Shown: piece by piece, positions 10,939 through 63,880 of the stretch
Position numbering within the stretch: the stretch's first letter is position 1
How the letters are laid out: each line of letters starts with the position of its first letter
From: Minisyncoccota bacterium
GTDB lineage: Bacteria > Patescibacteriota > Minisyncoccia > UBA9983
NCBI GenBank assembly: GCA_041648395.1
Contig: JBAZPC010000003.1
Location: 12,801-76,800 of the forward strand
Direction of reading: 5' to 3'
DNA: 64,000 nucleotides
The notes under the pieces: model-generated
Seen by the model: only the letters and a program-made list of their open reading frames with translations
Databases searched by the model: none
What the model was told of the DNA's origin: nothing
Program-made: the position numbers and the translations under genes

Positions 10939-11937
10939 TTAATTTAATTTTTTGTTTGCGATTTCATTTAATATTTGCCATCTCCTTTTTTTCTCCTCAA
11001 TTGGCACATTGTCTTTCATTTTTGCCGCCGGGGTGCCGGGGCGGGGAGAGTATTTGCCTATATACGCCTTACTGAATTTCAGTTCCTTGAATAATTTTAC
11101 CGTATTTTGGAATTGTTCTTTTGTTTCGCCCGGAAAACCGACAATTATATCCGTTGAAATTTTTACATCTGGAATGGCCTTGCGTATTTTTTTAATTAGG
11201 TTTTTGTAATGGCTGATAGTGTATTTTCTATTCATTTTTTTAAGAATTGCGTTGTCTCCTGACTGCGCTGGCAAGTGAATTTCTCTGGAGACCTTCTTAC
11301 TTTCACTTATTGTTTTTATTAACTTATCTGAAAAATCTTTTGGATGGCTGGACATAAAATAAATTTTAAAATTGTCCGGAATATCATTAATTATTTTCAA
11401 TAATTCGGGAAAACCATATTTATAACTGTTCACATTTTGGCCCAACAGCCAAATCTCTGTTGCTTTTCCGCCAGCTGGCGGATTTACCGCGTTTTTTATG
11501 TCTTGAATTATATTTTTTGCCGGCCGCGAACGCTCGCGGCCGCGGGTGTAAGGGACCGCGCAATATGTGCAAAAATTGTCGCAACCGGTCATTATGGGAA
11601 TATAAGTGGCATTAGAATTTGAGGCGATAGGTGTTAAATCAAAATATTCATCTGGATGCCAGAATTCTATGTTTTTATTTTTAGCTAATAGTTTTTTCTT
11701 ATCTTCTTTAAGAACACATCCGGCGATAATAATTTTTTTGTTTTTTAAATTTCTAATTTTCCCATAAACTCTGTTTGTCGCTGACTGCCTTACTGAACAA
11801 GCGTTAATAACCACGATGTCCGCCGATTCCGGCTTTGCCGTCATTTTATATCCGCTCATTTCCAATTTTCTCGCTATGCGCTCGCTGTCGGCCAAATTCG
11901 CCTGACAGCCAAAAGTAATGATGTGATAGGTTTTCAT
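10939..11937 (-). CDS. MiaB/RimO-family radical-SAM methylthiotransferase (no TRAM domain)
   Basis: MTTase N-domain cysteines (FGCQAN, NACSV, AGCV). Radical SAM CDNFCTYCAVPYTRG. Start taken as MKTYHI. Contains the PPAGG palindrome. Confidence 0.8.
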   Translation of the reverse strand: MKTYHIITFGCQANLADSERIARKLEMSGYKMTAKPESADIVVINACSVRQSATNRVYGKIRNLKNKKIIIAGCVLKEDKKKLLAKNKNIEFWHPDEYFDLTPIASNSNATYIPIMTGCDNFCTYCAVPYTRGRERSRPAKNIIQDIKNAVNPPAGGKATEIWLLGQNVNSYKYGFPELLKIINDIPDNFKIYFMSSHPKDFSDKLIKTISESKKVSREIHLPAQSGDNAILKKMNRKYTISHYKNLIKKIRKAIPDVKISTDIIVGFPGETKEQFQNTVKLFKELKFSKAYIGKYSPRPGTPAAKMKDNVPIEEKKRRWQILNEIANKKLN

Positions 11938-11941
11938 TTTA

Positions 11942-12002
11942 TGCCCGGGAGAGGGGTCGAACCTCCATGGGATTACTCCCACACGATTTTGAGTCGTGCG
12001 CG
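11942..12002 (-). pseudogene. partial tRNA-Leu copy (anticodon arm through 3' acceptor strand), diverged with compensatory stem changes
   Basis: Aligns to nt ~27-85 of the adjacent tRNA-Leu(CAA). T-stem GGAGG/CCTCT and variable-arm changes are compensatory. No 5' acceptor or D arm. Confidence 0.55.
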
Positions 12003-12023
12003 CCCCGCACTAAATTTTCCCGA

Positions 12024-12107
12024 TGCCGAAGGAGGGGGTCGAACCCTCATGGAATTACTTCCACACGATTTTGAGTCGTGCGCGTCTGCCAATTCCGCCA
12101 CTTCGGC
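12024..12107 (-). tRNA. tRNA-Leu (anticodon CAA), class II
   Basis: Acceptor GCCGAAG/CTTCGGC, disc A. Anticodon arm CACGA-CTCAAAA-TCGTG. Long variable arm. T arm GAGGG-TTCGACC-CCCTC. Confidence 0.8.
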
Positions 12108-12238: not shown

Positions 12239-13207
12239 ATGGCGCTTAATATAAATCCAAACGAAGGACTTAGAAAACCAATGAGCGTATTTTGGATAGA
12301 GGTTGAGAAAATTAATCCCAACCCTATGCAACCGCGTTCGGATTTTAACGAAGAACGGCTTGCTGATTTAGCGGAATCAATCAGGCAATACGGCGTGCTT
12401 CAGCCCCTCGTTGTCACAAGAAAAGAAATAGAAATTCCCAACGGCGCGAGGGTTGAATACGAACTCATCGCCGGTGAGAGGCGCCTTCGCGCCTCCAGGA
12501 TGGCAGGTCTTTTTCAAGTTCCCGTCATAATTCGCGATGACTCCGACGACAAGGTCAAGCTTGAACTTGCCATCATAGAAAATCTCCAGCGCGAGGATTT
12601 AAATCCCCTTGAACGCGCCTGGGCCTTCAAAAAATTAATTGACAGCTTTAATCTAAAGCATCACGAAGTCGGCCAGCGCGTGGGGAAAAGCAGGGTATTT
12701 GTCACCAACACTTTGAGAATTTTAAATCTGCCAGAAGAAATTCGGAAGGGATTGAGCGACGGAAATATTTCTGAAGGCCACACCCGTCCGCTTTTAATGT
12801 TAAGCGACAGAAAGGAAGACCAGATGAGATTGTTTCAAGAAATAATAAACAGAAAATTGAACGTGCGCGAGGCGGAAAACATATCAAGGAGAATTGCCGT
12901 GGAGCGAGCGAGAAGGAAAGATAATCTGCCCGACCATGAAACTAGAATTTTGGAGGAAAAATTGTCGGAAAATTTAGGAACGAGAGTGCAGATTGAACGC
13001 GACGGAGAAAAAAGAAAAATTCAAATAGAATTTTTCTCCGACGAGGAACTCCACGCCTTTTTAAAAAAAGTGATGAACACAAAAAGCGAAACTGATAATT
13101 TTTACGATGAATTTGAAAATCAAAATGAATTAGGCGAAGAAGATGTCCCAGTCGAATCAAAGCAACCGGAAGGGGAAGACGATTTAATAAATAATTTTTC
13201 TATTTGA
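12239..13207 (+). CDS. ParB/Spo0J-like partition / nuclease-domain protein (no adjacent parA)
   Basis: ParB N-domain QPLVV...IAGERRLRASRMAG, central HTH, acidic tail. Start may be the downstream MSVFWIEV. Confidence 0.7.
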   Translation: MALNINPNEGLRKPMSVFWIEVEKINPNPMQPRSDFNEERLADLAESIRQYGVLQPLVVTRKEIEIPNGARVEYELIAGERRLRASRMAGLFQVPVIIRDDSDDKVKLELAIIENLQREDLNPLERAWAFKKLIDSFNLKHHEVGQRVGKSRVFVTNTLRILNLPEEIRKGLSDGNISEGHTRPLLMLSDRKEDQMRLFQEIINRKLNVREAENISRRIAVERARRKDNLPDHETRILEEKLSENLGTRVQIERDGEKRKIQIEFFSDEELHAFLKKVMNTKSETDNFYDEFENQNELGEEDVPVESKQPEGEDDLINNFSI

Positions 13208-15074: not shown

Positions 15075-15095
15075 TCGCCAGTTTTTTTTATTTTT
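15060..15095. terminator. bidirectional rho-independent terminator
   Basis: CTGGCGACT-TAG-TCGCCAG stem flanked by A-run and T-run. Serves the convergent 14805 ORF and topA. Confidence 0.55.
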
Positions 15096-17262
15096 TATGC
15101 GGGTTATAGTTTGCGCACGATTTATTTGAACACCTTTCCGGAATTGTTTTTGTCCCCTCCATCATTAGCGAGCCGCAGGTTTTGCAAACATTTCCCGTAG
15201 GCCGTGATTTCATTATGAATCTGCATTTCGGATAATTATTGCAGGAAAAAAACGGGCCGAATTTGCCGCGGCGCTCCGTGATTTCCCCTCCGCCAGCTGG
15301 CGGATTGCATTTTGGGCATTTCACCCCCGTTTTTTCTTTTGCCTCCTGCTCCGCGCTTTTTTTAATAAATTTGCATTTCGGATAATTGTTGCAGGAAATG
15401 AATTTGCCGAAACGGCCTTCGCGTTCTATTAATTTTCCTGTCGCGCACTCCGGACACGCCTCGCCTGTTTCCTTTGGCCCTTCCATTATTGAACCGTCTA
15501 TTTTACGCGCGCCGGAGCATTTTGGAAATTTCGCGCAGCTCAAAAATCTTCCGTTGCGGGAAAGTTTTATAACCATTGGCCCTCCGCAGACGGGGCATTT
15601 GTGCTCATCGCCGGCCTCACCAAGGTTCGTTATTTTCTCCGCCGTTTTTTCTTTTAATTTCACGTCTTTGGAAAACGGTCCGTAGAAGTCCTTCAGCATT
15701 TTCTCGTATTTTCTTTTCCCTTCGGCTATTTCGTCCAGCTCTTTTTCCATCTCGGCGGTGAACGAGTCGCTGATGTATTGAGCAAAATTTTGTTCCAAGA
15801 AATCGCTTACCACTTCGCCGGTGTCGGTGGGCTTCAGCGCTCTGCCTTCTTTAATGACATAACCGCGGTCGTTGATTGTTTTTATTATTGAAGCGTAAGT
15901 GCTCGGCCGGCCGATGTCTCTTTTCTCCAACTCCTTGATTAGGCCCGCCTCGGTGTATCTCGGCGGCGGCTCGGTTTGCTTCCCTTCGCTTCCAATATTC
16001 AATAACTCCAAAGATTCTCCTTTTGTCAGCTTCGGCAACTCCACATCCTCTCCGCGCGCCGCTGGATCGGCGACAAGCCAGCCAGGGAAAATCATAATAC
16101 TGCCGTTTGCGGAAAAATTTGGAATTTCTCCTTCATCTATATTGGCGCTCACTTTTGTCCGCAGAATTTTCGCGTCCGCCATCTGCGAGGCGACAGTTCT
16201 CTCCCAAATGAGTTTGTAAAGTTTTTTCTGCTCGTCGTTCGCGCCGGCGGATTTCATTCCGAAATTTGTCGGCCGTACCGCTTCGTGCGCTTCCTGCGCC
16301 GTTTTGCTTTTTGACGCGTAGGTACGTGGCAACAAAAATTCTTTTCCGAATTGTTTTTCAATCGTCGCGTAAATTTGCGGTAGCGCTTCTTTGCTGACAT
16401 TTACGCTGTCGGTTCTCATGTAAGTGATAAGACCTTGTTCGTAAAGTTTTTGGGCGACGGACATCGTGCGCGACGGCGCGTATCCCAAGCGCGAGCTGGC
16501 GGTTTGCTGGAGAGTTGAGGTAATGAACGGCGGCCGCGGCGAACGCTTTGCTTCGGTTTGGGTTACATCAACTATTTGCCATTTATTTTTTTTGGCGGCT
16601 TCAATAATTCTTTCCGTTTCTTTTTCGTTTTTTGGCTGTTCATCGCAAGTGAGAATTATTTTATCTTTATTTTCAGTGGAAAATTCTCCGCTTATTACCC
16701 AAAAATTTTCCGGAACAAAAGCGCGAATTTCGCGTTCGCGTTCCATAATTATGCGCAGGGCGGGGGATTGCACACGCCCCGCGGATAGCCCGTAACGGAC
16801 TTTTTTCCATATCAAGCCACTCAAATCGTAGCCGACCAGGCGGTCCAAAACACGGCGCGCCTCTTGCGCCTTCACTAAATCCGCGTCAATATCGCGCGGA
16901 TGTTTTATTGCTTCTTTTATCGCGCTTTCGGTAATTTCGTTAAAAACGATGCGTTTCGGTTTTTTCAGCTCACATGCTTCTTTGATGTGCCAGGCAATCG
17001 ATTCTCCCTCGCGGTCGGGGTCGGTGGCGAGAATGACTTCGCTGGCTTTCTTTGAGAGATCTTTTATTTCTCTGATGACTTTTTCTTTTCCGTGAGAGAT
17101 TTCATAGCGGGGAACAAAGCCGGCAGGGATGTCGATGGCCGTCTTGTTGCTTTTCGGCAGATCGCGAACATGCCCCACGCTGGCGCGGATAATATATTCG
17201 TCTCCCAAATATTTTGAGATTGTTTTTGTTTTTGTCGGCGATTCAACAATAACTAGTTTCAT
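15088..17262 (-). CDS. topA: DNA topoisomerase I with multiple C-terminal zinc ribbons
   Basis: TOPRIM start MKLVIVESPTKTKTISKYLG, catalytic Tyr region, C4 zinc-ribbon repeats. Contains the PPAGG palindrome. Confidence 0.9.
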   Translation of the reverse strand: MKLVIVESPTKTKTISKYLGDEYIIRASVGHVRDLPKSNKTAIDIPAGFVPRYEISHGKEKVIREIKDLSKKASEVILATDPDREGESIAWHIKEACELKKPKRIVFNEITESAIKEAIKHPRDIDADLVKAQEARRVLDRLVGYDLSGLIWKKVRYGLSAGRVQSPALRIIMEREREIRAFVPENFWVISGEFSTENKDKIILTCDEQPKNEKETERIIEAAKKNKWQIVDVTQTEAKRSPRPPFITSTLQQTASSRLGYAPSRTMSVAQKLYEQGLITYMRTDSVNVSKEALPQIYATIEKQFGKEFLLPRTYASKSKTAQEAHEAVRPTNFGMKSAGANDEQKKLYKLIWERTVASQMADAKILRTKVSANIDEGEIPNFSANGSIMIFPGWLVADPAARGEDVELPKLTKGESLELLNIGSEGKQTEPPPRYTEAGLIKELEKRDIGRPSTYASIIKTINDRGYVIKEGRALKPTDTGEVVSDFLEQNFAQYISDSFTAEMEKELDEIAEGKRKYEKMLKDFYGPFSKDVKLKEKTAEKITNLGEAGDEHKCPVCGGPMVIKLSRNGRFLSCAKFPKCSGARKIDGSIMEGPKETGEACPECATGKLIEREGRFGKFISCNNYPKCKFIKKSAEQEAKEKTGVKCPKCNPPAGGGEITERRGKFGPFFSCNNYPKCRFIMKSRPTGNVCKTCGSLMMEGTKTIPERCSNKSCANYNPHKK

Positions 17263-21531: not shown

Positions 21532-23268
21532 CTAGAATTTATAAATAAATATTGACGAGCCTGCTCGAGCAACCGGTTCTTTTCCTTTCAGCCAGGAATA
21601 AGTGTCATCCGGTTTTATCGTGAATCCGCGCACAGGTTTTGCTATTGAGCCCTCGCGGGCGTTGGCGGATATGGCAAACCACGAGCCGGCGGACGGCTGA
21701 CCTTTTGATGACCACCAATCCTCATATTTGTCGCCGAAATAATATTTGCCGTCGCCGCCGCCGAAATAATGCAAATCAATTTTGTTGACGCTGTTCTCGT
21801 CCATCCAATCGCGCAGCCGCTTCATATCCTGTCCCCAGTCGTAATTTGAGTCGGTGGCGATTTTATAACCGTTGGCCGTACCGCCGGCAAGAATATTGTA
21901 ATAAGAAAGATAGTAAGGATAAGTGACGATTGTTGAAATAAACATAACGGCAAGCAAAATCCCCGTGAGTATGGTTTTGTTAAATTTGGCTATCACTAGC
22001 GCCACTAAAAAATAAGCGAAGGGCAGAATCGGCATAATGTGACGATGGCCGATATTTAAATTTCCGGTGATTGATTGGAAAACGTAGAAGGCGATAAAAA
22101 ATAAACTGGCGATGATGGTAAAATTATTCTTCATCCATTCGCGCGAAAAAGTTGAGCGCCCTCCTGCGCGGGCAAGAGAAATACTTTTTATGGCAAAGAA
22201 AATGGCGATAATAGTGAGAATATGAAAAATCAAACTTTCTTTGAATAGATAAAGGGTCGGGAAATACCATGGCGTCGCTTCGGAATAAACCGTTCCCATA
22301 AAATGCGAAGCGTTTCCTCCGCCCGCGCGTTGAACCACGGAAACGACGCCGAACAAATATTCAGCCAATGGTTTCAAAACATTCGTTCTTATCATCCACG
22401 CAAACGCAGGCATTGTTTTTCTGCCTAAATTGGAAGAGAGGGTGTCGCTTATGTCTTTTATTTGCAGGTCGCTCGGATAATTCCAGACGTGAAAAATATA
22501 AACAATATAAACAAGCGCCAAAGCAATCAATCCAATCATAATTATTTTCCAGAGTAAAGATAAAATTTTTCCCCTGTTAAGAATCCACCACAGCGCGACA
22601 AGGACAAAAAATATGGGCGCCAGGATGACGGTGGAAAATTTAAAAAGCAAGGCGACGCCCAAAAGCGCGCCGGCGATAAAAACATTTCTCCACGACTGAT
22701 TTTTTAAAAAAGCCAAAAAAGAGGCGATGGCGATAAAAAATCCGAAGGCCGCCGCCATGTCCGTGGTGACGTAGCGCGAGTGGGCGATGATGGTTGGTGA
22801 CATAGTGAAAAGGAAAAGTGTGAGAAAGCCAACTTTATCTCCGTAATTTTTTCGCGTCCAATAAAACAAAATCGCGCCGAACAAAACGGCAAGCAGTATC
22901 ATAGGCAGGCGGGCGAGACGGATTATTTTATCCGCGTCATTACCCGCTCGGTATAGAAAAATCTTTCCCATATCCCATTGGCGGCTAGAAATTTTTTCGC
23001 TCCAAGTCGGAATGTTTGTCGGAAAATTAAGATTTAAAAACATAAGCGGAAGAGCGGAAATGTCTTTCATTAACGGCGGGTGTTCAGGATTGAGGCGCAT
23101 ATCTTTCTGTGTCAGATAGGAATAGCCGGCGGGGATGTGCGCCACTTCGTCAAAAGTGGCAGTTTCGTCCCAAGCGGAAAGGAACGACAGCGCGAACATC
23201 AGCGCCAGCAGGCCGCCCGCGGCGATCCGCCAGCCGGCGGATACAAAATTGTTTTTTATTTTATCCAT
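21532..23268 (-). CDS. GT-C family membrane glycosyltransferase (PMT/ArnT-like)
   Basis: ~12 predicted TM helices and a C-terminal soluble domain. Tandem with a second GT-C gene. Confidence 0.6.
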   Translation of the reverse strand: MDKIKNNFVSAGWRIAAGGLLALMFALSFLSAWDETATFDEVAHIPAGYSYLTQKDMRLNPEHPPLMKDISALPLMFLNLNFPTNIPTWSEKISSRQWDMGKIFLYRAGNDADKIIRLARLPMILLAVLFGAILFYWTRKNYGDKVGFLTLFLFTMSPTIIAHSRYVTTDMAAAFGFFIAIASFLAFLKNQSWRNVFIAGALLGVALLFKFSTVILAPIFFVLVALWWILNRGKILSLLWKIIMIGLIALALVYIVYIFHVWNYPSDLQIKDISDTLSSNLGRKTMPAFAWMIRTNVLKPLAEYLFGVVSVVQRAGGGNASHFMGTVYSEATPWYFPTLYLFKESLIFHILTIIAIFFAIKSISLARAGGRSTFSREWMKNNFTIIASLFFIAFYVFQSITGNLNIGHRHIMPILPFAYFLVALVIAKFNKTILTGILLAVMFISTIVTYPYYLSYYNILAGGTANGYKIATDSNYDWGQDMKRLRDWMDENSVNKIDLHYFGGGDGKYYFGDKYEDWWSSKGQPSAGSWFAISANAREGSIAKPVRGFTIKPDDTYSWLKGKEPVARAGSSIFIYKF

Positions 23269-25130: not shown

Positions 25131-27540
25131 CTCCCAAATTTCTTTTTATATTTTTCTCTTGCTGGTATTTTTTTTAGTTGTTGTTATTCCCGCGTGGCTT
25201 TTGGCGGGCTATTTTAAAAAGAAAAAAGATATCAGCAAGGCGCTCAATCTTGTTCTCTTTGAAATAACTTTTCCCCAAACCGGCGGATTGCAGGAAGGCG
25301 AAAAGAAAAATTTCAAAGAACTGGTGGCGGCGATGGAGCAATTCTACGCCGGCATGTCTGCCTTCGGCCATTATTTCGCGCTTGAAATCGGCTTGCCTTA
25401 TTTTGGCGACGAAATAGTTTTTTACGCCGCTGTGCCCAAAGACAAAAGCCAACTTTTTGAAAAACAGGTACAAGGGCTTTATCCATTAGCAAGAACGGAA
25501 ATTAAAAAAGACGATTACAATATTTTTAGACCCCAAGGATATTCGTTCGGTACAATTATCAAATTAAAACAGAACGCAATTTTGCCGATTAAGACCTACG
25601 ACAAATTTGAACTGGACCCTCTCCAAATTATCGTCAATGTTTTTTCCAAACTGCAGAAGGAGGGCGAGGGGGCGGCGTTGCAAATTATCGTTTCTCCGTC
25701 CGACGATTCCATTATTAAAAAAGCGAAAACGGCGGCGTCCAAAATGAAAAGCGGAAAAAGTTTCAGAGAGGCAAGCCACGACAAAGGCCTGATTGGCGAG
25801 ATGATAGGTGATTTAGAAGCGGCGTTTTTTGGCAGTCCGCACAACGAGAAAAAAAATAAAGAAGAACCGAAACCAGTGGACGACGAAATAGTGAAGCTCT
25901 TGGAAAGCAAGGCGTCAAAACAGGCGATGCCGGCGAACGTCCGCCTCGTCATTTCCGCCGAAGACAAATCCAAGGCGGAACTTATTTTATCGGAATTGGA
26001 AAGCGCGTTTTTGCAGTTCAATGAAACGCAAGGGAACAGCTTTTATTTCATCCGTCCGTCCGGCCGCCGGCTCAAAAATTTCTTTCATGATTTTTCTTTC
26101 AGGATTCCCCGAAAAGACGACGCCATTCTTTTAAACACAGCCGAGCTTACTTCGCTTTTTCATTTTCCATCCGACTTCACCTCCGCCGTCGCGCCCCAGC
26201 TGAAATATTCGCGGCTGAAAGAAGCGGCGCCGCCGTTGAATCTGCCGCAGTCAGGGCTTCTTCTCGGCAAAAGCGTTTTCAGGGGCGAAGAGAAAAATGT
26301 TTTTATAAATGAAGACGACAGGCGAAGGCATTTTTACATCATCGGCCAGACGGGCACAGGCAAGTCCGTTCTGCTTAAGAATATGATTGCCCAAGACATT
26401 GAAGCGGGACGCGGTGTTTGCTTCATTGACCCGCATGGCTCCGACCTTCAGGATATTCTCTCGCGCATACCAAAAGAACGCGTTGACGATTTGATTTATT
26501 TCAATCCCGGCGATGTCCAGCGCCCGATGGGACTCAATATGCTTGAATACGACCAGAATTATCCGGAACAAAAAACTTTTATTGTCAACGAACTGCTCGG
26601 CATCTTTAATAAACTTTTTGATATGAAGACCGCCGGCGGACCGATGTTTGAACAATATTTTAGAAATGCCGTAATGCTGGTGATGGACGACCCCGCCTCT
26701 GGCAACACGCTTTTTGAAGTGAGCAGAGTTTTGAGCGACAAGGCATTCCGCGAGCTTAAATTATCAAAATGTTCCAATCCGATTACCAAATCATTTTGGA
26801 AAGAAGTGGCGGAGAAGGCGGGCGGAGAGGCGTCGCTTGCCAACATGGTGCCTTACATCACCAGCAAGTTTGATAATTTTCTTTCCAACGACATCATGCG
26901 TCCGATAATCTCGCAGGAAAAATCGGCATTCAATTTCAGAAAAGCGATGGACGAAGGAAAAATTCTGCTGGTCAATCTTTCTAAAGGGCGGCTCGGCGAC
27001 CTCAACTCAAATCTTCTCGGGCTTATCATTGTCGGCAAACTTTTGATGGCGTCATTGTCGCGCGCGGATATGGCGGAGAGCGAACGCAAAGATTTTTATC
27101 TTTACATTGACGAATTCCAAAACGTGACGACCGATTCCATCGCCACCATTCTTTCCGAGGCGAGAAAATATAAATTGGATTTAACTATCGCGCATCAATA
27201 TATCGGCCAGCTGGAAGAGAGCATCAAGAAGGCGGTGTTCGGCAACGTTGGTTCTATGGCGGCGTTTAGAATTGGTGCGGAGGACGCGGAATTTTTGAAG
27301 AATCAATACGAACCGGTTTTCAATTCTCACGACCTCCTCAACATTGATAATTACAACGCCTACCTTAAGCTTTTGGTGGAGGGTCAGACGTCGCGGCCGT
27401 TCAACATCCAAACCGTTGCGTTTAAAAAAGGCAACCCCGAGCTTGGCAAAATGATGGCGCAATTGTCGTCATCGCGCTACGGCAGGACAAAAATGGAAGT
27501 GGAAGAGGAGATAAATAAAAGATATAATATTCAGACATGA
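25123..27540 (+). CDS. membrane-anchored P-loop ATPase, VirD4/TraG/HerA(DUF87)-like, with an uncharacterised N-terminal domain
   Basis: TM helix. Walker A IIGQTGTGKS, IDPHGSD, Walker B LYIDEFQN, TIAHQYIGQL. N-terminal 300 aa paralogous to the 57406..58578 protein. Confidence 0.6.
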   Translation: MFSSQISFYIFLLLVFFLVVVIPAWLLAGYFKKKKDISKALNLVLFEITFPQTGGLQEGEKKNFKELVAAMEQFYAGMSAFGHYFALEIGLPYFGDEIVFYAAVPKDKSQLFEKQVQGLYPLARTEIKKDDYNIFRPQGYSFGTIIKLKQNAILPIKTYDKFELDPLQIIVNVFSKLQKEGEGAALQIIVSPSDDSIIKKAKTAASKMKSGKSFREASHDKGLIGEMIGDLEAAFFGSPHNEKKNKEEPKPVDDEIVKLLESKASKQAMPANVRLVISAEDKSKAELILSELESAFLQFNETQGNSFYFIRPSGRRLKNFFHDFSFRIPRKDDAILLNTAELTSLFHFPSDFTSAVAPQLKYSRLKEAAPPLNLPQSGLLLGKSVFRGEEKNVFINEDDRRRHFYIIGQTGTGKSVLLKNMIAQDIEAGRGVCFIDPHGSDLQDILSRIPKERVDDLIYFNPGDVQRPMGLNMLEYDQNYPEQKTFIVNELLGIFNKLFDMKTAGGPMFEQYFRNAVMLVMDDPASGNTLFEVSRVLSDKAFRELKLSKCSNPITKSFWKEVAEKAGGEASLANMVPYITSKFDNFLSNDIMRPIISQEKSAFNFRKAMDEGKILLVNLSKGRLGDLNSNLLGLIIVGKLLMASLSRADMAESERKDFYLYIDEFQNVTTDSIATILSEARKYKLDLTIAHQYIGQLEESIKKAVFGNVGSMAAFRIGAEDAEFLKNQYEPVFNSHDLLNIDNYNAYLKLLVEGQTSRPFNIQTVAFKKGNPELGKMMAQLSSSRYGRTKMEVEEEINKRYNIQT

Positions 27541-31057: not shown

Positions 31058-31086
31058 TTATTTGAATTCGTTAAAAACCTTACCAA

Positions 31087-31157: not shown

Positions 31158-31162
31158 AAATT

Positions 31163-46377: not shown

Positions 46378-47700
46378 ATGCATAGTTATATTGTTGACGG
46401 CGGAAGGAGGTTGAAGGGGAGCGTGACGATTAACGCTTCCAAGAATTCGGCAACGGCGATTTTAATCGCCTCGCTTTTGAATGAAGGAAAAACGACCATC
46501 AAAAATCTTCCAAAGATAGAAGAGGTCTTTAGAATCATAGAAGTGCTGGAAAGCATCGGCGTAAAAACGGAATGGAAGGGCAGGGCGCTTGAAATCATTC
46601 CACCTAAAAATTTTTCTATAAATAAAATAAACGTGGAGGCGGCGCAGAAGACGCGGAGCGTCGTGCTTCTGATCGGCGCCTTGGCGCGCAAGCTGAAAAA
46701 ATTTTCCTTGCCCGACTCCGGCGGCTGCAAACTTGGCCGGCGCACCATAATGCCGCACATTTACGCTTTGGAGGACTTCGGTATAAAAATAAGCTCATCC
46801 TGCGACAAGCTGGACATAGACGCTTCAAAAATAAAACCGGCGAAAGAAATAATAATGTACGAATCAGGCGACACGGCCACGGAAAACGCCATCATGATTG
46901 CCTCCATAATTCCACAAAAGACGATTATTAAATTCGCTTCCGCGAATTACCAAGTGCAGGATTTGTGCTACTTTTTGAAAAAATTAGGAGTGAAGATAAA
47001 GGGGATTGGCGCGACTACATTGGAAATTATTGGCAGAAAAAAATTAAATCAAGACATTGAATATTATCTTACGGAAGATCCGGTGGAATCAATGCTTTTT
47101 ATTTCCGCGGCAATAGTGACAAAATCATCCATTATTCTTAAAAGATGTCCCATGGAGTTTTTGGAGCTGGAGCTTTTCAAGTTGAAAAAGATGGGATTTA
47201 AGTTTAAAATAACAAAGGAATACAAAGCGAGAAACGGCTTCAACCGGCTGGCGGACATAAAAACTTTTCCTTCCAAACTTGTCGCGCCGGTGGAAAAAAT
47301 TTACGGCCGTCCTTTTCCCGGAGTGAACATAGACAATCTGCCGTTCTTTGTACCCATTGCCACCCAGGCGAAAGGCGAGACGCTCATTCACGATTGGGTT
47401 TACGAAAATCGCGCGATTTATTACGCAGAACTGAATCGCTTGGGCGCGAACATAAGATTGGCTGACCCGCACCGCGTTTTCATAGAGGGGCCGACAAAAC
47501 TAAGAGCAGCGGAAATTACGTGTCCATTCGCTCTTCGTCCATCGGCGATAATTCTAGTGGCGATGCTCGCAGCCAAAGGAAGGTCAATACTAAAAAATAC
47601 TTATACTATTGAGAGAGGATATGAAGATTTGTGCGGAAGATTTAGAAAATTAGGAGCGATGGTTGAAAAAAAGAAAGCGAATATTGAATTTTTGGAGTAA
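46378..47700 (+). CDS. murA: UDP-N-acetylglucosamine 1-carboxyvinyltransferase
   Basis: EPSP-synthase fold. MHSYIVDGGRRLKGSVTINASKNSATAILIASLL. Catalytic Cys region KLGRRTI (Cys to Asp-type variant context). Confidence 0.85.
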   Translation: MHSYIVDGGRRLKGSVTINASKNSATAILIASLLNEGKTTIKNLPKIEEVFRIIEVLESIGVKTEWKGRALEIIPPKNFSINKINVEAAQKTRSVVLLIGALARKLKKFSLPDSGGCKLGRRTIMPHIYALEDFGIKISSSCDKLDIDASKIKPAKEIIMYESGDTATENAIMIASIIPQKTIIKFASANYQVQDLCYFLKKLGVKIKGIGATTLEIIGRKKLNQDIEYYLTEDPVESMLFISAAIVTKSSIILKRCPMEFLELELFKLKKMGFKFKITKEYKARNGFNRLADIKTFPSKLVAPVEKIYGRPFPGVNIDNLPFFVPIATQAKGETLIHDWVYENRAIYYAELNRLGANIRLADPHRVFIEGPTKLRAAEITCPFALRPSAIILVAMLAAKGRSILKNTYTIERGYEDLCGRFRKLGAMVEKKKANIEFLE

Positions 47701-50076: not shown

Positions 50077-50863
50077 GTTTTTTCAAGATTTTTATATCTT
50101 CCGTTACTTCCGGATAATCGGTCTCGCAGATGAGGTCGTTTTTTTGTTTTTTGGCGAAGGCGGCGATTTGCGCGAAACCCTCCATGCCGATTTTTCCTTT
50201 GCCGATGTGCTCATGCCTGTCTTTGCGCGAGCCGAGGTCGGTGGCGCTGTCGTTGGCGTGGATGAGTTTTATGTTTTTGAAGTTAATGCTGCCGGATTTC
50301 CAATCATAACCGGAAGCGAAGCCGTGTTGAGTGTCCAAGCAGATGCCGGCAAGAGCGGGCGATTTTATTTTACTTAAAATTTCTTCAATTTCTTTTATAT
50401 CCGCGCCAATTATTTTTCCCGCGCCGGCGGAATTTTCAATGAGTAACTTCGCGCTCCCATTGTATCCGTCCAAAACTTTTTCCAAACCCTCTATTACTTT
50501 TTTTATTGCTTCTGCGTTTTCCATTTCCTTTGCCGAGCCGAGATGGGTCATGACGTATTTCGCGCCAAGCAGGGAAGCGCGCTCCAGTTCTGTTCTAATC
50601 GCGCTTATTGAACCATATCTTATCCTGTTATCGGTGGAGGCGAGATTTATATAATAGGGCGCGTGGATGTAGACATCGTGTAACCCGTAACGTGTAACGC
50701 GTAACTTGAAATTTTTTACAACTTCTGGAGTGAGCTCCTGACCGCTTCCGCCCTGTGGCGGGCGGGAAAAAATCTGCATCACCTCGCAACCCAACTCTCG
50801 CGCCATCTTTGGCGCGTTCTCAATCCCTCCCCGTATGGACACATGACAACCAACTCGTGTCAT
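50060..50863 (-). CDS. nfo: endonuclease IV (AP endonuclease family 2)
   Basis: HAPYYINLAS, LIENSAG, ICLDTQHGFASG, HANDS metal-binding motifs. Contains a heptamer repeat tract. Confidence 0.85.
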   Translation of the reverse strand: MTRVGCHVSIRGGIENAPKMARELGCEVMQIFSRPPQGGSGQELTPEVVKNFKLRVTRYGLHDVYIHAPYYINLASTDNRIRYGSISAIRTELERASLLGAKYVMTHLGSAKEMENAEAIKKVIEGLEKVLDGYNGSAKLLIENSAGAGKIIGADIKEIEEILSKIKSPALAGICLDTQHGFASGYDWKSGSINFKNIKLIHANDSATDLGSRKDRHEHIGKGKIGMEGFAQIAAFAKKQKNDLICETDYPEVTEDIKILKKLISSR

Positions 50864-53838: not shown

Positions 53839-56352
53839 ATGAATCCGTACAGCCATAAAAAAATTGAAAAGAAGTGGCAAAAGTATTGGGAGAAAAATAA
53901 ACTTGACCAGGCGAAAGATTTTTCCAAAAGGCCTAAATATTATTGTCTCGTAGAATTTCCTTATCCGTCGGGAGACGGCTTGCATGTAGGCCACACTCGA
54001 AGCTATACTGCCATGGATATAATTGCCCGCAAAAGAAGAATGCAGGGCTACAACGTGCTTTATCCCATGGGCTGGGACGCTTTCGGTTTGCCGACGGAAA
54101 ATTACGCTATTAAAAAAGGAGTTCACCCAAGCGTTATTACAAAAAAGAATACAGATAATTTTAGAAGGCAATTAAAATCATTAGCTTTTTCTTTTGATTG
54201 GAGCAGGGAAATAAATACTACCGACCCGAAATATTATAAATGGACGCAGTGGATATTTTTGCAGCTTTTTAAGAAGGGCTTGGCGTACAAGCATAAAATG
54301 CCGATAAACTGGTGCTTGTCTTGCAAAGTCGGTTTGGCGAACGAGGAGGTGGTGGACGGCAAGTGCGAGCGTTGCGGGGGGCAGACGGAAAAAAGGGAAA
54401 AAGAGCAATGGATGTTGGCCATAACGAAATACGCCGACCGGCTAGATAAGGATTTGGATCCGCCAGCTGGCGGATTAGATTATCTGGAAAAAATAAAAAT
54501 CCAGCAGAGAAATTGGATAGGGAAATCAGAAGGAGCGGAGATTGAATTCAAGATTCAAGATTCAAGTTTCAAGTTTCAAGTTTTTACCACACGCGTTGAT
54601 ACTATTTTTGGTTGCACTTATGTAGTTGTTGCGCCCGAGCATGAGATAATCTCAAAACTAAAATCGCAAATATTAAATCTGAGCGAAGTTGAAAAATATA
54701 TTAATGAAGCGAAAAGAAAATCAGACCTGCAAAGGACGGAATTGCAAAAAGAAAAAACTGGCGTTGAATTGAAGGGCATGAAAGCCATTAATCCTTTCAA
54801 TAATGAAGAAGTGTCGGTGTTTGTGGCGGACTATGTTTTGGGGCATTATGGCACAGGCGCGGTAATGGCCGTCCCCGCGCACGACGAACGCGATTTTGAA
54901 TTCGCGAAGAAATATGGATTACCGGTGCGGCAATCGGTCGCCAGAAATTCTAATTTCTTAAGGACGGACGACGAGGGAAATCCTACGAAATCAGAAATTT
55001 CTGGCTCCCTTAGTGAGTGTTTTGTTGAAGATGGCGTCCTTGCTGATTCCGGCCAGTTTTCCGGCCTGACTTCTGCCGAGGCGTGCGGGGAGATGGTGAA
55101 ATGGCTGGAGGAAAAGAAGTTGGGGAAAAAAGTGGTTAAATTTCACTTGCGCGACTGGGTTTTCTCCCGCCAGCATTATTGGGGCGAGCCGATACCGATA
55201 GTGAATTGTCCAAAATGCGGCCTAGTACCGGTGCCGGAAAAAGATTTGCCGGTAAAATTGCCTGATGTAAAAAAATACGAACCGACTGACACGGGCGAAT
55301 CGCCGTTGGCGGCTATTTTAAAATGGGTGAATGTAAAATGCCCGAAGTGCAAAGGTCCGGCAAAAAGGGAAACCGACACCATGCCAAACTGGGCGGGATC
55401 GTCTTGGTATTATCTCGCATATTTAATGCTCGAAAATAAAAAATCAAATCTCAAAAATCAAAAATATGTTTGGGATAAGAAAAAATTAAAATATTGGATG
55501 CCCGTTGATTGGTACAACGGCGGAATGGAGCACACAACTTTGCATTTATTATATTCACGATTTTGGAATAAATTTTTATTTGACATCAAGGCGGCGCCGA
55601 CAAGCGAGCCGTATAAAAAAAGAACTTCGCATGGAATGATACTTGGACCGGACGGAGAGAAGATGTCCAAGTCGCGCGGCAATGTGATAAATCCGGACGA
55701 TATGGTTTCCGCTTATGGCGCAGACGCTTACCGTTTGTACCAAATGTTTATGGGGCCGTTTGATCAAGCGATACCATGGGACCCGAAAGGCATTGAAGGC
55801 ACGAGTAGGTTTTTGGGAAGAGTGTGGAAGTTGTTATCAGCCGTCAGCTATCAGTCGTCAACCAAAGAGCAAAAGCTGAAAGCTGAAAGCGGAAAGCTGA
55901 AGACTTTATTGCACAAAACCATCAAAAAAGTTTCTGAAGATATTGAAAGCATGCGGTTCAACACAGCTGTCAGTTCACTCATGATTTTATCAAACGAGAT
56001 GGAGAAACAGGAAGAAATACTGACTACTGATTACCTAATACTGGTTACTCTTTTAAGTCCTTTTGCTCCTCATATCTGCGAAGAAATTTGGAGCAAGCTT
56101 GGTAACAAAAAATCAATCTTTTTGGAAAAATGGCCGAAGTTTGATTCCCAAAAAATAAGAGAAGATAGTTTTGAATTGGTGATGCAAGTGAACGGCAAAG
56201 TGAGAGACAGGTTTGAGGCGCCGACGGATATTTCCGAAAATGACGCCATGTTATTGACATTGAAACGCGAAAATGTTAAAAAGTGGATAGGCGATAAACA
56301 AGTCAAAAAAGTCATATTTATCCAAAATAAGCTGATAAATTTAATAGCATAA
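53839..56352 (+). CDS. leuS: leucyl-tRNA synthetase
   Basis: HVGHTRSYT (HIGH), KMSKS. Editing domain. Carries the 18-bp palindrome and two heptamer tracts. Confidence 0.9.
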   Translation: MNPYSHKKIEKKWQKYWEKNKLDQAKDFSKRPKYYCLVEFPYPSGDGLHVGHTRSYTAMDIIARKRRMQGYNVLYPMGWDAFGLPTENYAIKKGVHPSVITKKNTDNFRRQLKSLAFSFDWSREINTTDPKYYKWTQWIFLQLFKKGLAYKHKMPINWCLSCKVGLANEEVVDGKCERCGGQTEKREKEQWMLAITKYADRLDKDLDPPAGGLDYLEKIKIQQRNWIGKSEGAEIEFKIQDSSFKFQVFTTRVDTIFGCTYVVVAPEHEIISKLKSQILNLSEVEKYINEAKRKSDLQRTELQKEKTGVELKGMKAINPFNNEEVSVFVADYVLGHYGTGAVMAVPAHDERDFEFAKKYGLPVRQSVARNSNFLRTDDEGNPTKSEISGSLSECFVEDGVLADSGQFSGLTSAEACGEMVKWLEEKKLGKKVVKFHLRDWVFSRQHYWGEPIPIVNCPKCGLVPVPEKDLPVKLPDVKKYEPTDTGESPLAAILKWVNVKCPKCKGPAKRETDTMPNWAGSSWYYLAYLMLENKKSNLKNQKYVWDKKKLKYWMPVDWYNGGMEHTTLHLLYSRFWNKFLFDIKAAPTSEPYKKRTSHGMILGPDGEKMSKSRGNVINPDDMVSAYGADAYRLYQMFMGPFDQAIPWDPKGIEGTSRFLGRVWKLLSAVSYQSSTKEQKLKAESGKLKTLLHKTIKKVSEDIESMRFNTAVSSLMILSNEMEKQEEILTTDYLILVTLLSPFAPHICEEIWSKLGNKKSIFLEKWPKFDSQKIREDSFELVMQVNGKVRDRFEAPTDISENDAMLLTLKRENVKKWIGDKQVKKVIFIQNKLINLIA
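54458..54475. repeat. 18-bp perfect palindrome ATCCGCCAGCTGGCGGAT inside leuS (encodes DPPAGG)
   Basis: Self-complementary. Related copies at 11468-11483, 15289-15304, 44415-44430, 62793-62809. Confidence 0.85.
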
Positions 56353-58578: not shown

Positions 58579-58602
58579 GATAGGGATTGCCTGTTTAAAA
58601 TA

Positions 58603-60887: not shown

Positions 60888-60960
60888 AGGCGATTTTGTA
60901 AAAGCGGGGAGATGATATCAAGCCGCTTTTTATTTTTTGTATTTTATTTATAATACTCTT

Positions 60961-62676
60961 ATGACTTCCCATGAAATTCGTGAAAAATTCTTAAAGTTTT
61001 TTGAGGAAAAAGGGCATGCGGTTATTCCGTCTGCCTCTTTGATTCCTTCGGAAACAGACCCAACTGTGCTTTTTACCACTGCCGGCATGCACCCGTTGGT
61101 GCCTTATCTTTTAGGTGAGGAACATCCAGGCGGGAAGCGCGTGGCGAATTCGCAAAAATGCATCCGCACGGGCGACATAGACGAAGTGGGCGATGAAAGC
61201 CATCTCACTTTTTTTGAAATGTTGGGAAATTGGTCATTTGGGGACTATTTTAAAAAAGAAGCGATTGAATGGAGCTGGGAGTTTTTAACGGATAAAAAAT
61301 GGCTGGGGATTGATAAAAATAAATTAAGCGTGACGGTTTTTGAAGGCGACTCAAACGCCCCGCGCGATGAAGAATCGGCGCAAATTTGGCAGTCACTCGG
61401 CGTGCCAAAAGAAAAAATTTTTTATAAAGGAAAAGAAGATAACTGGTGGGGGCCGGCGGGCGCGACAGGGCCGTGCGGACCATGCACGGAAATGTTTATA
61501 GATAATATGGAGGTGTGGAATGACGTTTTTATGCAATACAACAAAACGGCGGATGGCAGTTTTGAACCACTCAAGCAAAAACCTGCCCGCAATGCTACGC
61601 ATAGCGTTGCAGGCGGGAATGTTGATACGGGGATGGGGCTGGAAAGAATCGCCATGGTGATACAGGGCGTCAATTCAGTTTACGAAACGGATTTGTTTGC
61701 GCCGATAATAAATAAAATAGAAAAGCTATCAGCAAACAGCTATCAGCTATCAGCTAAATCTTATCGCATTATCGCCGACCATATTAAGGCGAGCGTATTT
61801 ATAATTGCCGACGGGGTGATGACGTCCAATACAGGTAAAGGATATGTTTTACGTCGCTTAATAAGGCGCGCGGTAAGACACGGAAAATTATTGGGTATAG
61901 AAAAAGATTTTACAAAAGAAATTGCCGAGGTTGTTGTTGAAATTTATAAAGAACATTATCCAGAGGTAAAGAATAACGAATCAAGAATTATGAATGAATT
62001 GGAAAAAGAGGAAAAGAAATTTAAAGAGACATTAGAAAAAGGTCTGAAAGAATTTGAAAAAGGAACGGAACCATTTATTCTTTTTACGACCTTCGGTTTT
62101 CCGTTTGAATTAACCCAAGAGTTGGCAAAGGAAAAGGGGATTAAAATTGATATTGAAAATTTTAATGAGCAATTAAAAGCTCATCAACAGCTTTCCCGCA
62201 CGGCTTCCGTGGGTATGTTTAAGGGCGGGTTGGCGGACGCGGGTGAGATGACCACAAAATATCATACTGCCACGCATTTGCTTTTGGCGGCGTTAAGAGA
62301 GATTTTAGACGGGGATATAATTCAAAAAGGGAGTAATATCACAGCCGAGCGTTTGCGTTTTGATTTCAATTATCCGCAAAAAATAACAGACGAGCAGATT
62401 AAAAAAATTGAGGACTTAGTTAATGAAAAAATTCAGGAAAAAATTCCGGTGGAAATGATTGAATTGCCGAAAGAAGAAGCGTTGAAGGCGACCAAGTCGT
62501 CTTTTGATGAAGGTAAATACGGAGATATTGTGAAAGTTTATAAAATAGGAAATTTTAGCGTGGAATTGTGTGGCGGACCCCATGTCGCCAATACCGGCGA
62601 ACTCGGCCGTTTTAAAATCACCAAAGAAGAAGCGTCTTCTGCGGGCGTGCGGAGAATCAAGGCGGTATTGGAGTAA
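60961..62676 (+). CDS. alaS: alanyl-tRNA synthetase, short form (catalytic + editing core, no C-terminal domain)
   Basis: MTSHEIREKFLKFFEEKGH, class II motifs, editing HxxxH...CGGPH. Contains a heptamer tract. Confidence 0.85.
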   Translation: MTSHEIREKFLKFFEEKGHAVIPSASLIPSETDPTVLFTTAGMHPLVPYLLGEEHPGGKRVANSQKCIRTGDIDEVGDESHLTFFEMLGNWSFGDYFKKEAIEWSWEFLTDKKWLGIDKNKLSVTVFEGDSNAPRDEESAQIWQSLGVPKEKIFYKGKEDNWWGPAGATGPCGPCTEMFIDNMEVWNDVFMQYNKTADGSFEPLKQKPARNATHSVAGGNVDTGMGLERIAMVIQGVNSVYETDLFAPIINKIEKLSANSYQLSAKSYRIIADHIKASVFIIADGVMTSNTGKGYVLRRLIRRAVRHGKLLGIEKDFTKEIAEVVVEIYKEHYPEVKNNESRIMNELEKEEKKFKETLEKGLKEFEKGTEPFILFTTFGFPFELTQELAKEKGIKIDIENFNEQLKAHQQLSRTASVGMFKGGLADAGEMTTKYHTATHLLLAALREILDGDIIQKGSNITAERLRFDFNYPQKITDEQIKKIEDLVNEKIQEKIPVEMIELPKEEALKATKSSFDEGKYGDIVKVYKIGNFSVELCGGPHVANTGELGRFKITKEEASSAGVRRIKAVLE

Positions 62677-62695
62677 AAATGTTATAATTCAACCA

Positions 62696-63880
62696 ATGAG
62701 TTTTTTAGGAAAAAAGAAGGATGAAATTATTGCCGTCATAAATATCGGCAGCGCTTCGGTTAGCGGAATGATGGTAAAAAAATCGGCCGGCAATCCGCCG
62801 GCTGGCGGAGCCGAAATAATAACCAGCGCCAAAATTCCAGTAAACTTTCTAGCAGATGTGGATTATGCCGCCTTTTGGCGATGCACTTGCGACTCGCTTA
62901 AAAAAGTCATTGATAAATTGCTGGTTGGTTATCCAAAAGGCCCCGATAAAGTTCTTTGTGTTTTTTCGCCTCTTTGGGGAATTTCCCAGACAAGGGTGAT
63001 AAGAGTGAGGAGGGAGGAACCGTTCACGGCGACTCAAGAATTTCTGGATGAACTTATTGATAACGAAATAAAAATTTTTCAAGCCCAATGGCACAATAGA
63101 ATCCCGTATCTGAAAGACGATTCAGAGCTGGTTGAGAAAGAAATAATCAAAACAACTTTAAACGGCTACAGCGTAAAAAATCCGTTTGGCAAAAAAGCAA
63201 AAAAGATGGATGTTTTTGTACATTTGAGTTTGGTAGTAAGGGGGGCGAAGGACTCTATCCAAAAATATTTTTTTGATAATTTTGGAGATGTGCTGGTTGT
63301 TTTCCATACCTTGCCTTTTGTTGTTTTTTCCTCGCTGAAAGGCATAATAAACGCGGAGGAGGGATTCCTTTTTTCCGACATCGGCGGAGAGACAAGCGAC
63401 ATCTCTCTCGTGCGTAAAAATATTATTGAAGAAACTTTGACCTTTCCGCGCGGGAGGAATTTTTTAATAAGAAACATAGCCAAAGAATTTAAAACTTTCA
63501 TTGATGAGGCAAAATCGCTTCTGGCGAGCTTTAGGAAGGGAGATTTAAACAAAGCGTCTTCTGATAAAATTTCAGCAGTCATAAACGCCGCTCAAGCAGA
63601 ATGGTGCGGATTTGCGGAAAAGGCGCTGGGGGAAATTTATCAAAATTCGCCGTTACCGATGGCTTTTATAATGGTAAGTGACGAAAATGTCGGACAGGAA
63701 TTTTCCGAATGCGCCAAGAACGAATCTTTCGCGAAATTCACCGTCCTCGGCAAGCCGTTTGATGTAAAACAAATTTCCGCCGACGCCTTAAAACACAACT
63801 TCAAATTCAAGCGCAGCTTTGCGCAAGACAACGACGTCTTCCTGATGCTCATCTCCCTCTTCGCCGACAAAAATTTGTAA
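62696..63880 (+). CDS. actin-like ATPase, FtsA/PilM-like
   Basis: VINIGSASVSG and DIGGETSDISLV phosphate motifs. Contains a PPAGG element variant. Confidence 0.5.
   Translation: MSFLGKKKDEIIAVINIGSASVSGMMVKKSAGNPPAGGAEIITSAKIPVNFLADVDYAAFWRCTCDSLKKVIDKLLVGYPKGPDKVLCVFSPLWGISQTRVIRVRREEPFTATQEFLDELIDNEIKIFQAQWHNRIPYLKDDSELVEKEIIKTTLNGYSVKNPFGKKAKKMDVFVHLSLVVRGAKDSIQKYFFDNFGDVLVVFHTLPFVVFSSLKGIINAEEGFLFSDIGGETSDISLVRKNIIEETLTFPRGRNFLIRNIAKEFKTFIDEAKSLLASFRKGDLNKASSDKISAVINAAQAEWCGFAEKALGEIYQNSPLPMAFIMVSDENVGQEFSECAKNESFAKFTVLGKPFDVKQISADALKHNFKFKRSFAQDNDVFLMLISLFADKNL

Follow-up and report, generated by a model that had tools for sequence, protein, structure and literature searches.

Genes and hairpin copies in the 64-kb window

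The 64,000-nt stretch of DNA analysed in this study (the window; positions 12,801 to 76,800 of contig JBAZPC010000003.1, from a Minisyncoccota bacterium of the Patescibacteriota) has ~42% GC, is ~87% coding, and carries eight copies of a very short GC-rich hairpin repeat. All eight copies are intragenic, and they are distributed over seven genes, with priA being hit twice. Six hosts are confirmed by Pfam matches: a MiaB/RimO-like radical-SAM enzyme, TopA, a PMT_2 glycosyltransferase, PriA, LeuRS, and ribosomal protein L33. The remaining host, an 'FtsA-like' open reading frame (ORF), has no Pfam match and is a member of a large conserved family of the candidate phyla radiation (CPR). A census of the 16-mer TCCGCCAGCTGGCGGA allowing up to two mismatches, with the expectation taken from dinucleotide-preserving shuffles, gave seven matches versus 0.01 expected. 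Among these, five are exact (at 11467, 15289, 44140, 44415, and 54459), two have one mismatch (at 23226 and 62794), and none has two. The eighth member is a 15-nt variant, TCCGCCTCTGGCGGA, which has the same stem with a 3-nt loop and lies inside rpmG, the gene for L33. Read in the host frames, five of the copies encode (N/D)PPAGG, and the other three encode LRQLAD, SAGWRI, and SASGG, respectively. The copies, followed by three possible decayed copies, are as follows.

7237..7251, + strand: copy in rpmG (L33, 7156-7329), TCCGCC-TCT-GGCGGA, read S-A-S-G-G, in the loop between two Cys pairs
11467..11482, - strand: copy in the MiaB/RimO-like radical-SAM gene (10939-11982), exact 16-mer, read N-PPAGG
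15289..15304, - strand: copy in topA (15088-17262), exact 16-mer, read N-PPAGG, right after the CPKC of the C-terminal zinc ribbon
23226..23241, - strand: copy in the PMT_2-family glycosyltransferase ORF (21532-23268), one mismatch, sense TCCGCCGGCTGGCGGA, N-terminal codons 10-15, read S-A-G-W-R-I
44140..44155, - strand: copy in priA (43635-45494), exact 16-mer, read L-R-Q-L-A-D
44415..44430, - strand: copy in priA (43635-45494), exact 16-mer, read NPPAGG, in a loop of the Cys-rich (zinc) region
54458..54475, + strand: copy in leuS (53839-56352), full 18-bp palindrome ATCCGCCAGCTGGCGGAT, read D-PPAGG-L
62794..62809, + strand: copy in the actin/FtsA-like conserved CPR ORF (62696-63880), one mismatch (A7>G, loop GGCT), read N-PPAGG
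25272..25287, + strand: possible decayed copy in the ORF 25123-27540, four mismatches, read F-P-Q-T-G-G in the PPxGG frame
47240..47255, + strand: possible decayed copy in the EPSP-synthase gene (46378-47700), three mismatches, right half intact, read F-N-R-L-A-D
50747..50762, - strand: possible decayed copy in the ORF 50060-50863, four mismatches, read R-P-P-Q-G-G

An earlier note on this DNA had described five copies, each read as (N/D)PPAGG in its host frame. These five are present essentially where it placed them, except that the MiaB-like copy was one base off (11467-11482), but its count was too low, and the three copies that it missed (44140-44155, 23226-23241, and 7237-7251) are all in other frames. 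The full 18-bp palindrome exists in the leuS copy (16-mer at 54459-54474) and in no other, the A7>G substitution at 62794-62809 is as described, and the background that was called AT-rich is only moderately so. Matches with three or four mismatches are also in surplus (8 versus ~0.9 expected), and several of them share frames (FPQTGG, RPPQGG, and FNRLAD), as expected of decayed copies; the surplus is also seen when matches with three to five mismatches are counted. The LeuRS of the window is identical to a protein annotated from a Candidatus Paceibacterota metagenome-assembled genome. An ENA contig is identical to window positions 43839-64000, and the copies recur in independent assemblies (ENA, JGI, NCBI, and Logan) produced by different assemblers.

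Comparison with orthologues

Seven of the eight sites, i.e. all but the SAGWRI copy at 23226, were compared with orthologues. The net gain is 12 nt (four residues) at all six 16-mer sites compared and 15 nt (five residues) at the L33 site of the 15-nt variant, and blastn alignments of filled with empty alleles show gaps of 12. In LeuRS, the window reads DLDPPAGGLDY whereas most of 22 close homologues read DLDK----VDY, and T. thermophilus LeuRS has a four-residue gap at the same site (DLE----GL). An AlphaFold2 model of moderate quality (predicted local distance difference test score, pLDDT, 63) places the LeuRS insert in a segment of pLDDT <50 that lies between two helices, 195-205 and 215-226, i.e. 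in a predicted interhelical loop of low confidence. TopA reads C-NPPAGG-GE in the window versus C-xx-GE in ~60 relatives. The NPPAGG copy of PriA adds four residues relative to relatives and corresponds to a six-residue gap in K. pneumoniae PriA (4NL4), and the LRQLAD copy adds four residues (LADK) relative to 28 of 31 relatives, with the identical CTGGCGGACAAG also found at this site in the homologue P0136 (55% identity). The MiaB-like protein has AVNPPAGGKATE versus AVQK----GAKE, a gain of four residues relative to 30 or more orthologues, the FtsA-like ORF gains four residues at a turn read (D/N)-G in family representatives, and alignment of L33 with its T. thermophilus counterpart leaves a clean five-residue gap exactly at SASGG. 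The insert is absent from most orthologues, including the solved E. coli and K. pneumoniae PriA, T. thermophilus LeuRS, and T. thermophilus L33.

As judged from these alignments, the window copies are lineage-specific insertions in variable loops at every compared site, including the Cys-rich region of PriA and the zinc-ribbon knuckle of TopA, which is the outcome that the earlier note had proposed to look for. Likewise, its view of a DNA-level repeat rather than a shared native peptide agrees with the identical codons in unrelated genes and with the absence from most orthologues. The inserted unit of 18 nt or six codons, in contrast, has to be replaced by a net gain of 12 nt or four residues (occasionally +9, +15, or 0). 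Because unrelated insertions also occur in the same loops in other lineages, as seen in the LeuRS and TopA alignments, these loops are generally indel-tolerant. Other lineage-specific GC-rich or long inserts were seen in LeuRS loops, i.e. LVSPPARGGVRGG in P0056, PARRCYASSVAGG in P0014, and an insert of ~100 residues directly after LeuRS site 2 in P0002, and these hint at further insert families.

Conserved stem and variable loop

The repeat consists of a 6-bp stem, TCCGCC/GGCGGA, and a loop of 2-5 nt, which is usually AGCT and then makes a 16-nt perfect palindrome. In a set of 14 near-copies with one or two mismatches, collected irrespective of position, 16 of the total of 20 differences from the consensus fall at loop positions 7-10 (P ~4e-7). 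Furthermore, among the synonymous third positions of the PPAGG frame, those in the loop (7 and 10) vary ten times and those in the stem (4, 13, and 16) only once. Loops of 2, 3, and 5 nt were found on this 6-bp stem as well; some of these units are native Ala-rich coding sequences (e.g. the SAASAE of PCMT at 39456, which is also conserved in L207), and others are clear insertions. Since both the sequence and the length of the loop vary on a conserved stem, the conserved entity is a stem-loop rather than a palindrome or protein site with fixed spacing. The PvuII-type CAGCTG centre, which had been taken as a feature of the element, is incidental rather than the conserved part, and CAGCTG is neither avoided nor special in the window.

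A 30-nt double unit (TCCGCCCAGGRCSGA followed by TCCGCCTCKGGCGGA), which encodes SAQxxSASGG and adds eight residues, is found in TopA of L130 (2613-2642) and in MiaB of L266 (6499-6528). A composite common to two unrelated genes of two genomes would be hard to obtain except by copying. As RNA or single-stranded DNA, the hairpin has a stability of -11 to -15 kcal/mol. Three stem substitutions were found in coding copies, and all are C>T on the sense strand, so that G.U pairing survives in the mRNA and is lost from the antisense RNA. No copy is followed by a U-tract on the sense strand, and antisense tails were flagged at 15289 and 44415 (two of the seven 16-mers) and at rpmG 7237-7251; such tails are expected opposite Lys/Asn-rich coding sequence.

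Two possible connections of the sequence were rejected. A link to PvuII-type restriction is not supported, with CAGCTG not avoided and the avoidance of TCGA and GATC having no shown link to the element, and an origin from a tRNA T-arm was set aside, the resemblance being taken as a coincidence, since the arms are in the opposite order. Rfam matched six tRNAs only in the window and nothing at the copies. As separate observations on the window, TCGA reaches only 0.24 and GATC only 0.27 of the expected count, and the palindromes TTCGAA (2 versus 53), ATCGAT (3 versus 22), and AACGTT (3 versus 24) are far below expectation. This suggests a strong restriction-modification pressure, and several relatives are alike. 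In addition, a tRNA with anticodon CUA (18907-18980, + strand), labelled 'Pyl' by ARAGORN, may be a suppressor or a specialised decoder; TAG ends 7 of 51 window ORFs.

Occurrence outside the window

When one genome per species was scanned for exact matches, the 16-mer was found at at least 120 loci. Of the 120 matches listed, ~41 fall in Patescibacteria of many classes (Saccharibacteria, Microgenomates lineages, and many Parcubacteria lineages), which is far more than their share of sequence would give. Most of the others are ordinary coding sequence of high-GC genomes (xRQLAE or SASWR) or belong to larger repeats of Bacteroidota. As the earlier note had predicted for a genome-wide count, the frame is biased: among the matches listed, 22 of 25 CPR copies in ORFs of at least 150 residues are in the PPAGG frame (P ~2e-8 under equal frames). 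About half of the long-ORF CPR copies are preceded by AA (Asn), and the codons are identical among copies in unrelated genes. Over 1.2 Mb of relatives, TCCGCCAGCTGGCGGA is the commonest GC-rich palindrome. Its density is patchy: the window has 7 copies in 64 kb, several relatives have 1-3 in 4-13 kb, the 22 kb of L126 have no copy of the 16-mer, and 1.1 Mb of TopA-linked loci have five exact copies.

Individual sites are filled in a scattered manner. LeuRS site 1 is filled in P0001 and in the 70%-identical P0007 and P0008 but empty in the 80%-identical P0002 and P0003, and the PriA site called PriA-B is filled in the window, P0136 (55% identity), and P0149. The TopA site is filled in the window and in L172, whereas L128 and L140 have a decayed copy that represents an independent event, because its register is shifted by one codon. 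At MiaB site 1, the window and P0259 have a filled copy and P0254 has a decayed one. At MiaB site 2, 9 of 120 homologues are filled, and the nearest neighbours of each (80-83% identity) are empty. Decay can be followed through NPLTGG, NPPVGK, NLPAGG, PPTGGG, and DPPVDG. Occurrence of the same hexapeptide at the same position elsewhere, which the earlier note had regarded as speaking against an insertion, is indeed seen in CPR homologues (LeuRS of P0007/P0008, TopA of L172, MiaB of P0259, and PriA of P0136/P0149), but since nearer relatives are empty, it stems from repeated gain, or from lateral spread, at hot spots. Third-position identity is not raised beyond ~20-35 nt around shared filled sites, which excludes long recent transfers.

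Intergenic copies in other genomes lie in A-tract/T-tract contexts typical of bidirectional terminators. A phage vector was considered and rejected; the 55 matches to viral contigs are mostly high-GC coding coincidences and lack the N-PPAGG pattern. Two further repeats were noticed among these loci. In a Shapirobacteria contig (L036; 1091-1560 and 3908-4065), the 16-mer is one module of an intergenic repeat of at least 160 nt, which contains several more hairpins and a terminator-like end and lies upstream of two successive genes. Another palindromic repeat family is built on the core ATTCGCGCGAAT with conserved flanks; its eight copies lie in L126, L136, L167, and L168, mostly intergenic or at ORF ends.

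Junctions and target sites

No target-site duplication flanks any copy, and duplication models of 2 nt, 4 nt, or AT all fail on the pairs of filled and empty alleles. Instead, comparison of filled with empty alleles indicates that 1-7 target nucleotides are replaced or re-used. Symmetrised flanks of 119 half-sites contain no fixed tetranucleotide and only a weak preference for A/C at -1. A constant 12-nt insert at one fixed junction was also rejected, with no single junction fitting all sites; subtraction of 12 nt from the filled site leaves one of five 4-nt remnants (TCCG, TCCA, TCGA, TGGA, or CGGA). The net change is +9 at MiaB site 2 and +15 in P0256.

Judging by the orthologues, the empty state at the FtsA-like site, MiaB site 1, TopA, and LeuRS site 1 was probably an Asn/Asp-Gly turn (N|G to N-PPAG-G). 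The closest empty PriA allele has AAT CCG GCG (N-P), and PriA-B is compatible with ATC|GAC. A non-coding case is found in L063: in two tRNA-Asn fragments, 3 nt of the D-loop have given way to the 16-mer, with a gain of 13 nt. Because this gain is not a multiple of three, the multiple-of-three rule is limited to coding DNA.

GIY-YIG genes and tRNA cassettes

The window contains a gene for an 82-residue GIY-YIG protein (31163-31411, - strand) immediately 5' of tRNA-Gln (31086-31158), the whole cassette spanning 31086-31470. The gene is preceded by a displaced duplicate of the 5' part of the tRNA-Gln, in which the D-loop is interrupted by a GC hairpin, CCTGGCCGGGCAGG. The layout of gene and displaced tRNA fragment is also found in L063, L157, L166, and L179, and it has the appearance of a mobile cassette that targets the tRNA and restores it. 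In L063, the GIY-YIG gene lies between two tRNA-Asn fragments, each with the exact 16-mer in its D-loop. In L179, the gene is flanked by TCCGCCagaGGCGGA and CCCGCCtttGGCGGG in anticodon loops. In L030 and in the Mucilaginibacter isolate L056, a GIY-YIG gene has the 16-mer upstream, at a distance of 96 and 157 nt, respectively.

The motif lies within 160 nt of the GIY-YIG gene in three of three loci that had been selected by the motif. Among eight GIY-YIG genes in loci not selected by the motif, that of L179 is flanked by stem-family hairpins and that of L157 has one ~220 nt downstream, with a background of about one stem-family hairpin per 45 kb. These data point weakly to small stand-alone GIY-YIG nucleases as the agent, and the link is only suggestive because the window's own cassette carries a different hairpin.

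A Y1/RAYT transposase (REP-associated tyrosine transposase; REP, repetitive extragenic palindrome) was rejected as the agent. No Y1_Tnp gene was found among the window ORFs scanned, and the sole one seen elsewhere, in L209, has its own different hairpins. This IS200-like gene (L209, 6880-7665) has GTGCAGCAC-N3-GTGCTGCAC hairpins on both sides, a REP/RAYT-like arrangement in a Patescibacteria contig that is unrelated to the 16-mer. The window also encodes a XerC/D-like tyrosine recombinase (9151-9987), DprA (17297-18151), and a HerA/TraG-like ATPase (25123-27540), which are relevant to recombination or DNA uptake and have no shown link to the repeat.

Discussion

In this study, we found that a stretch of Minisyncoccota DNA carries eight copies of a hairpin repeat of only 15-16 nt within protein-coding genes. 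The properties demonstrated are the insertion relative to orthologues, the sharing of identical units by unrelated genes and by many CPR classes, the frame bias, the recurrence at hot spots, the conserved stem with a free loop, and the decay. We favour, with moderate confidence, the explanation that these copies are members of a family of hairpin repeats, very short and GC-rich, that behave as a non-autonomous copy-in element and are filtered by selection for frame and loop tolerance. In this reading, a pre-formed hairpin unit would be written into a break or gap with few target bases lost or re-used, typically adding 12 nt in the case of the 16-mer and 15 nt in the case of the 15-mer, and an enzyme acting on the hairpin or on the break would account for the spread. 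Considering that Patescibacteria genomes are nearly all coding, surviving copies would need to change the length by multiples of three, to be in a frame giving small turn-forming residues (PPAGG, SASGG, or more rarely RQLAD), and to lie in a surface loop that accepts indels, in many cases at an Asn/Asp-Gly turn or zinc-ribbon knuckle. Selection would supply this filter of frame and loop, and the inserted copies would later decay through ordinary substitution.

Several observations weigh against this explanation. The conservation of the stem even at synonymous sites could mean that the hairpin is maintained by function or drive, rather than being neutral after insertion. The exact junction is not fixed, with all five remnants being compatible, and the net length varies, with 0, +9, +12, and +15 all seen. 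The zero change occurs at LeuRS site 3, where, in the relatives P0012 and P0003, IRQLAD stands in place of ISKLKS, and resembles patch replacement. LeuRS site 1 also looks like patch replacement rather than simple insertion; GAT AAA GTT has become GAT CCG CCA GCT GGC GGA TTA, i.e. AAA GTT was replaced by the same 18 nt, identically in two clades. The closest empty alleles compared are 80-86% identical, and the window ORFs and the filled/empty pairs revealed neither a mobilising gene nor a target-site duplication or terminal structure.

A more specific form of the copy-in explanation would make the repeat a new class of ultra-small (15-16 nt) hairpin elements mobilised or homed by tRNA-adjacent GIY-YIG nucleases. 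Such nucleases, small and stand-alone, would cut at short targets, Asn/Asp-Gly codon pairs being one example, and the hairpin would be written into the break to leave translated scars of 4-5 residues in essential genes throughout the radiation. We regard this proposal as speculative and, on present evidence, rather improbable.

Alternatively, the 16-mer may be a recognised DNA motif that was gathered by selection or molecular drive and not by transposition, either as a DNA-uptake signal, with filled alleles being preferentially taken up and recombined into related lineages, or as a non-canonical parS, bound by a chromosome protein such as the window's own ParB. This is the strongest competitor, although we consider it unlikely. 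The stem conservation at synonymous sites and the origin of LeuRS site 3 without length change would both fit a motif, as would the identical filled alleles at orthologous sites despite saturated synonymous divergence and with nearer relatives empty. Both DprA (17297-18151) and ParB (12239-13207) are encoded in the window, two copies lie within 2.1 kb of parB, and the canonical parS was found neither in the window nor in 2.3 Mb of relatives; an alternative conserved palindrome was not found near parB either. The copies span 7-63 kb of the window, in which the GC skew indicates no origin. However, a stem that carries several loop sequences and loop lengths of 2, 3, 4, or 5 nt is incompatible with a dimeric site of fixed spacing, and isolated half-sites are not enriched (2 observed versus ~0.9 expected). 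Densities differ more than 10-fold between related genomes, and identity near shared filled sites is not elevated beyond ~20-35 nt. The composite 30-nt double unit common to unrelated genes, the copies in loci with unrelated gene neighbourhoods (e.g. leuS in L123), and a mismatch spectrum of 5, 2, and 0 rather than the continuum expected of stepwise drive also argue against a gathered motif. In another CPR lineage (L175 and L181-L189), a conserved intergenic palindrome, TTTTCCACGTGGAAAG, is parS-like.

A third possibility, which we judge distinctly improbable, is that the hairpin is kept for a function at the RNA level (antisense termination inside genes, mRNA protection or processing, or slowing of ribosomes at domain boundaries) and that its spread is secondary. 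The stable 6-bp stem with a tetraloop, the three coding substitutions that keep a G.U pair in the mRNA only, the terminator-like appearance of the copies at 15289 and 44415 on the antisense strand, and the intergenic copies in bidirectional-terminator-type contexts are all in line with such a function. But T-rich tails accompany only two of the seven copies and are expected there from the coding sequence, three wobble-preserving changes are too few for a test, many orthologues lack the hairpin, and the decay of copies is visible. Finally, an origin of the pattern by chance, from native coding sequence, or as an artefact of assembly or library has a negligible probability and is excluded for the window copies: although single 16-mers in high-GC genomes are ordinary xRQLAE/SASWR coding and Ala-rich native peptides such as SAASAE of the PCMT gene (conserved in L207) mimic the stem, only 0.01 copies were expected in the window, the copies found are in frame and in alignment gaps with a decay series, and independent assemblies reproduce them.

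Among known systems, the copies resemble Rickettsia palindromic elements (RPEs) most in behaviour, and the analogy drawn in the earlier note is fair in this respect. RPEs are ~100-150 bp long, add 30-50 residues, and are confined to Rickettsia. Both repeats are palindromic, insert in frame in conserved genes, place a peptide at a tolerated surface position, occupy many unrelated genes of a reduced genome, and lack a known transposase, and the in-frame insertion absent from orthologues that is typical of RPEs is seen in LeuRS, TopA, PriA, MiaB, the FtsA-like ORF, and L33. However, the present repeat is no extended hairpin of RPE length but 15-16 nt (18 at most) with a net gain of 12-15 nt or 4-5 residues, occurs in many classes of Patescibacteria, and has no sequence relation to RPEs. 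In form, the copies are closest to REP/REPIN elements, which are also short GC-rich hairpins with a conserved stem, and the stand-alone nuclease-type gene flanked by hairpins, here a small GIY-YIG gene, mirrors the REP-flanked RAYT gene. REPs are extragenic, 20-40 nt long, and have a GTAG/CGTC head (PMC3733652). In contrast, 8 of 8 window copies are inside ORFs, the 119 half-site flanks have no fixed tetranucleotide, and no cognate Y1 gene flanked by the repeat was found among the window ORFs scanned, the Y1_Tnp gene of L209 being accompanied by a different hairpin.

Other systems are more distant. Unlike MITEs (miniature inverted-repeat transposable elements), which have terminal inverted repeats and target-site duplications, no copy is flanked by a direct repeat. 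The highly iterated palindrome HIP1 of cyanobacteria is 8 bp long, occurs about once per kb, and spreads by substitution. Like HIP1, the present repeat is a short perfect palindrome that is abundant in coding regions with a frame preference, and LeuRS site 3 arose without length change, but 7 of 7 compared window sites change length, the loop length is variable, and the density is about one per 8-10 kb at most. DNA uptake sequences (DUS) and uptake signal sequences (USS) are non-palindromic with a fixed sequence, and parS is a 16-bp palindrome with fixed spacing. These motifs are likewise over-represented and lie inside genes in tolerated frames or loops. However, the repeat has no similarity to the parS palindrome TGTTNCACGTGAAACA and has spacers of 2-5 nt, and its density (7 per 64 kb versus 0 per 22 kb in L126 versus 5 exact per 1.1 Mb) is not the uniformly high density of DUS. 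The GC clusters of yeast mitochondria, including byp-like elements, are GC-rich hairpins that invade an AT-rich compact genome in a patchy and strain-specific manner (PMC4464245, PMC8811140). They share with the present repeat the GC-rich hairpin units in a relatively AT-rich compact genome including its protein genes and the patchy spread, but they are mitochondrial, at least 30-50 nt long, and in some cases bypassed and not translated, whereas the units described here are bacterial, 15-16 nt long, in frame, and presumably translated. Thus, the behaviour is closest to RPEs and the form to REP hairpins, yet the repeat lacks defining features of both, as well as those of MITEs, HIP1, parS, and DUS. 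In the literature searched, there was no mention of the 14-mer core of the palindrome and no report linking PPAGG, Patescibacteria, and palindromic in-frame insertions.

In summary, if the copy-in explanation is true, this would possibly be the shortest repeat known to colonise protein-coding genes and a direct source of lineage-specific loop insertions in CPR core enzymes such as LeuRS, TopA, PriA, MiaB, and L33. The copies provide a natural map of insertion-tolerant loops in essential proteins and a marker for tracing lateral exchange among uncultivated lineages, and the inserts are able to distort alignments and phylogenies of CPR marker genes. The repeat may also offer a handle on a DNA-writing activity, and, if the link to GIY-YIG nucleases holds, it could be more than another intragenic palindromic repeat.

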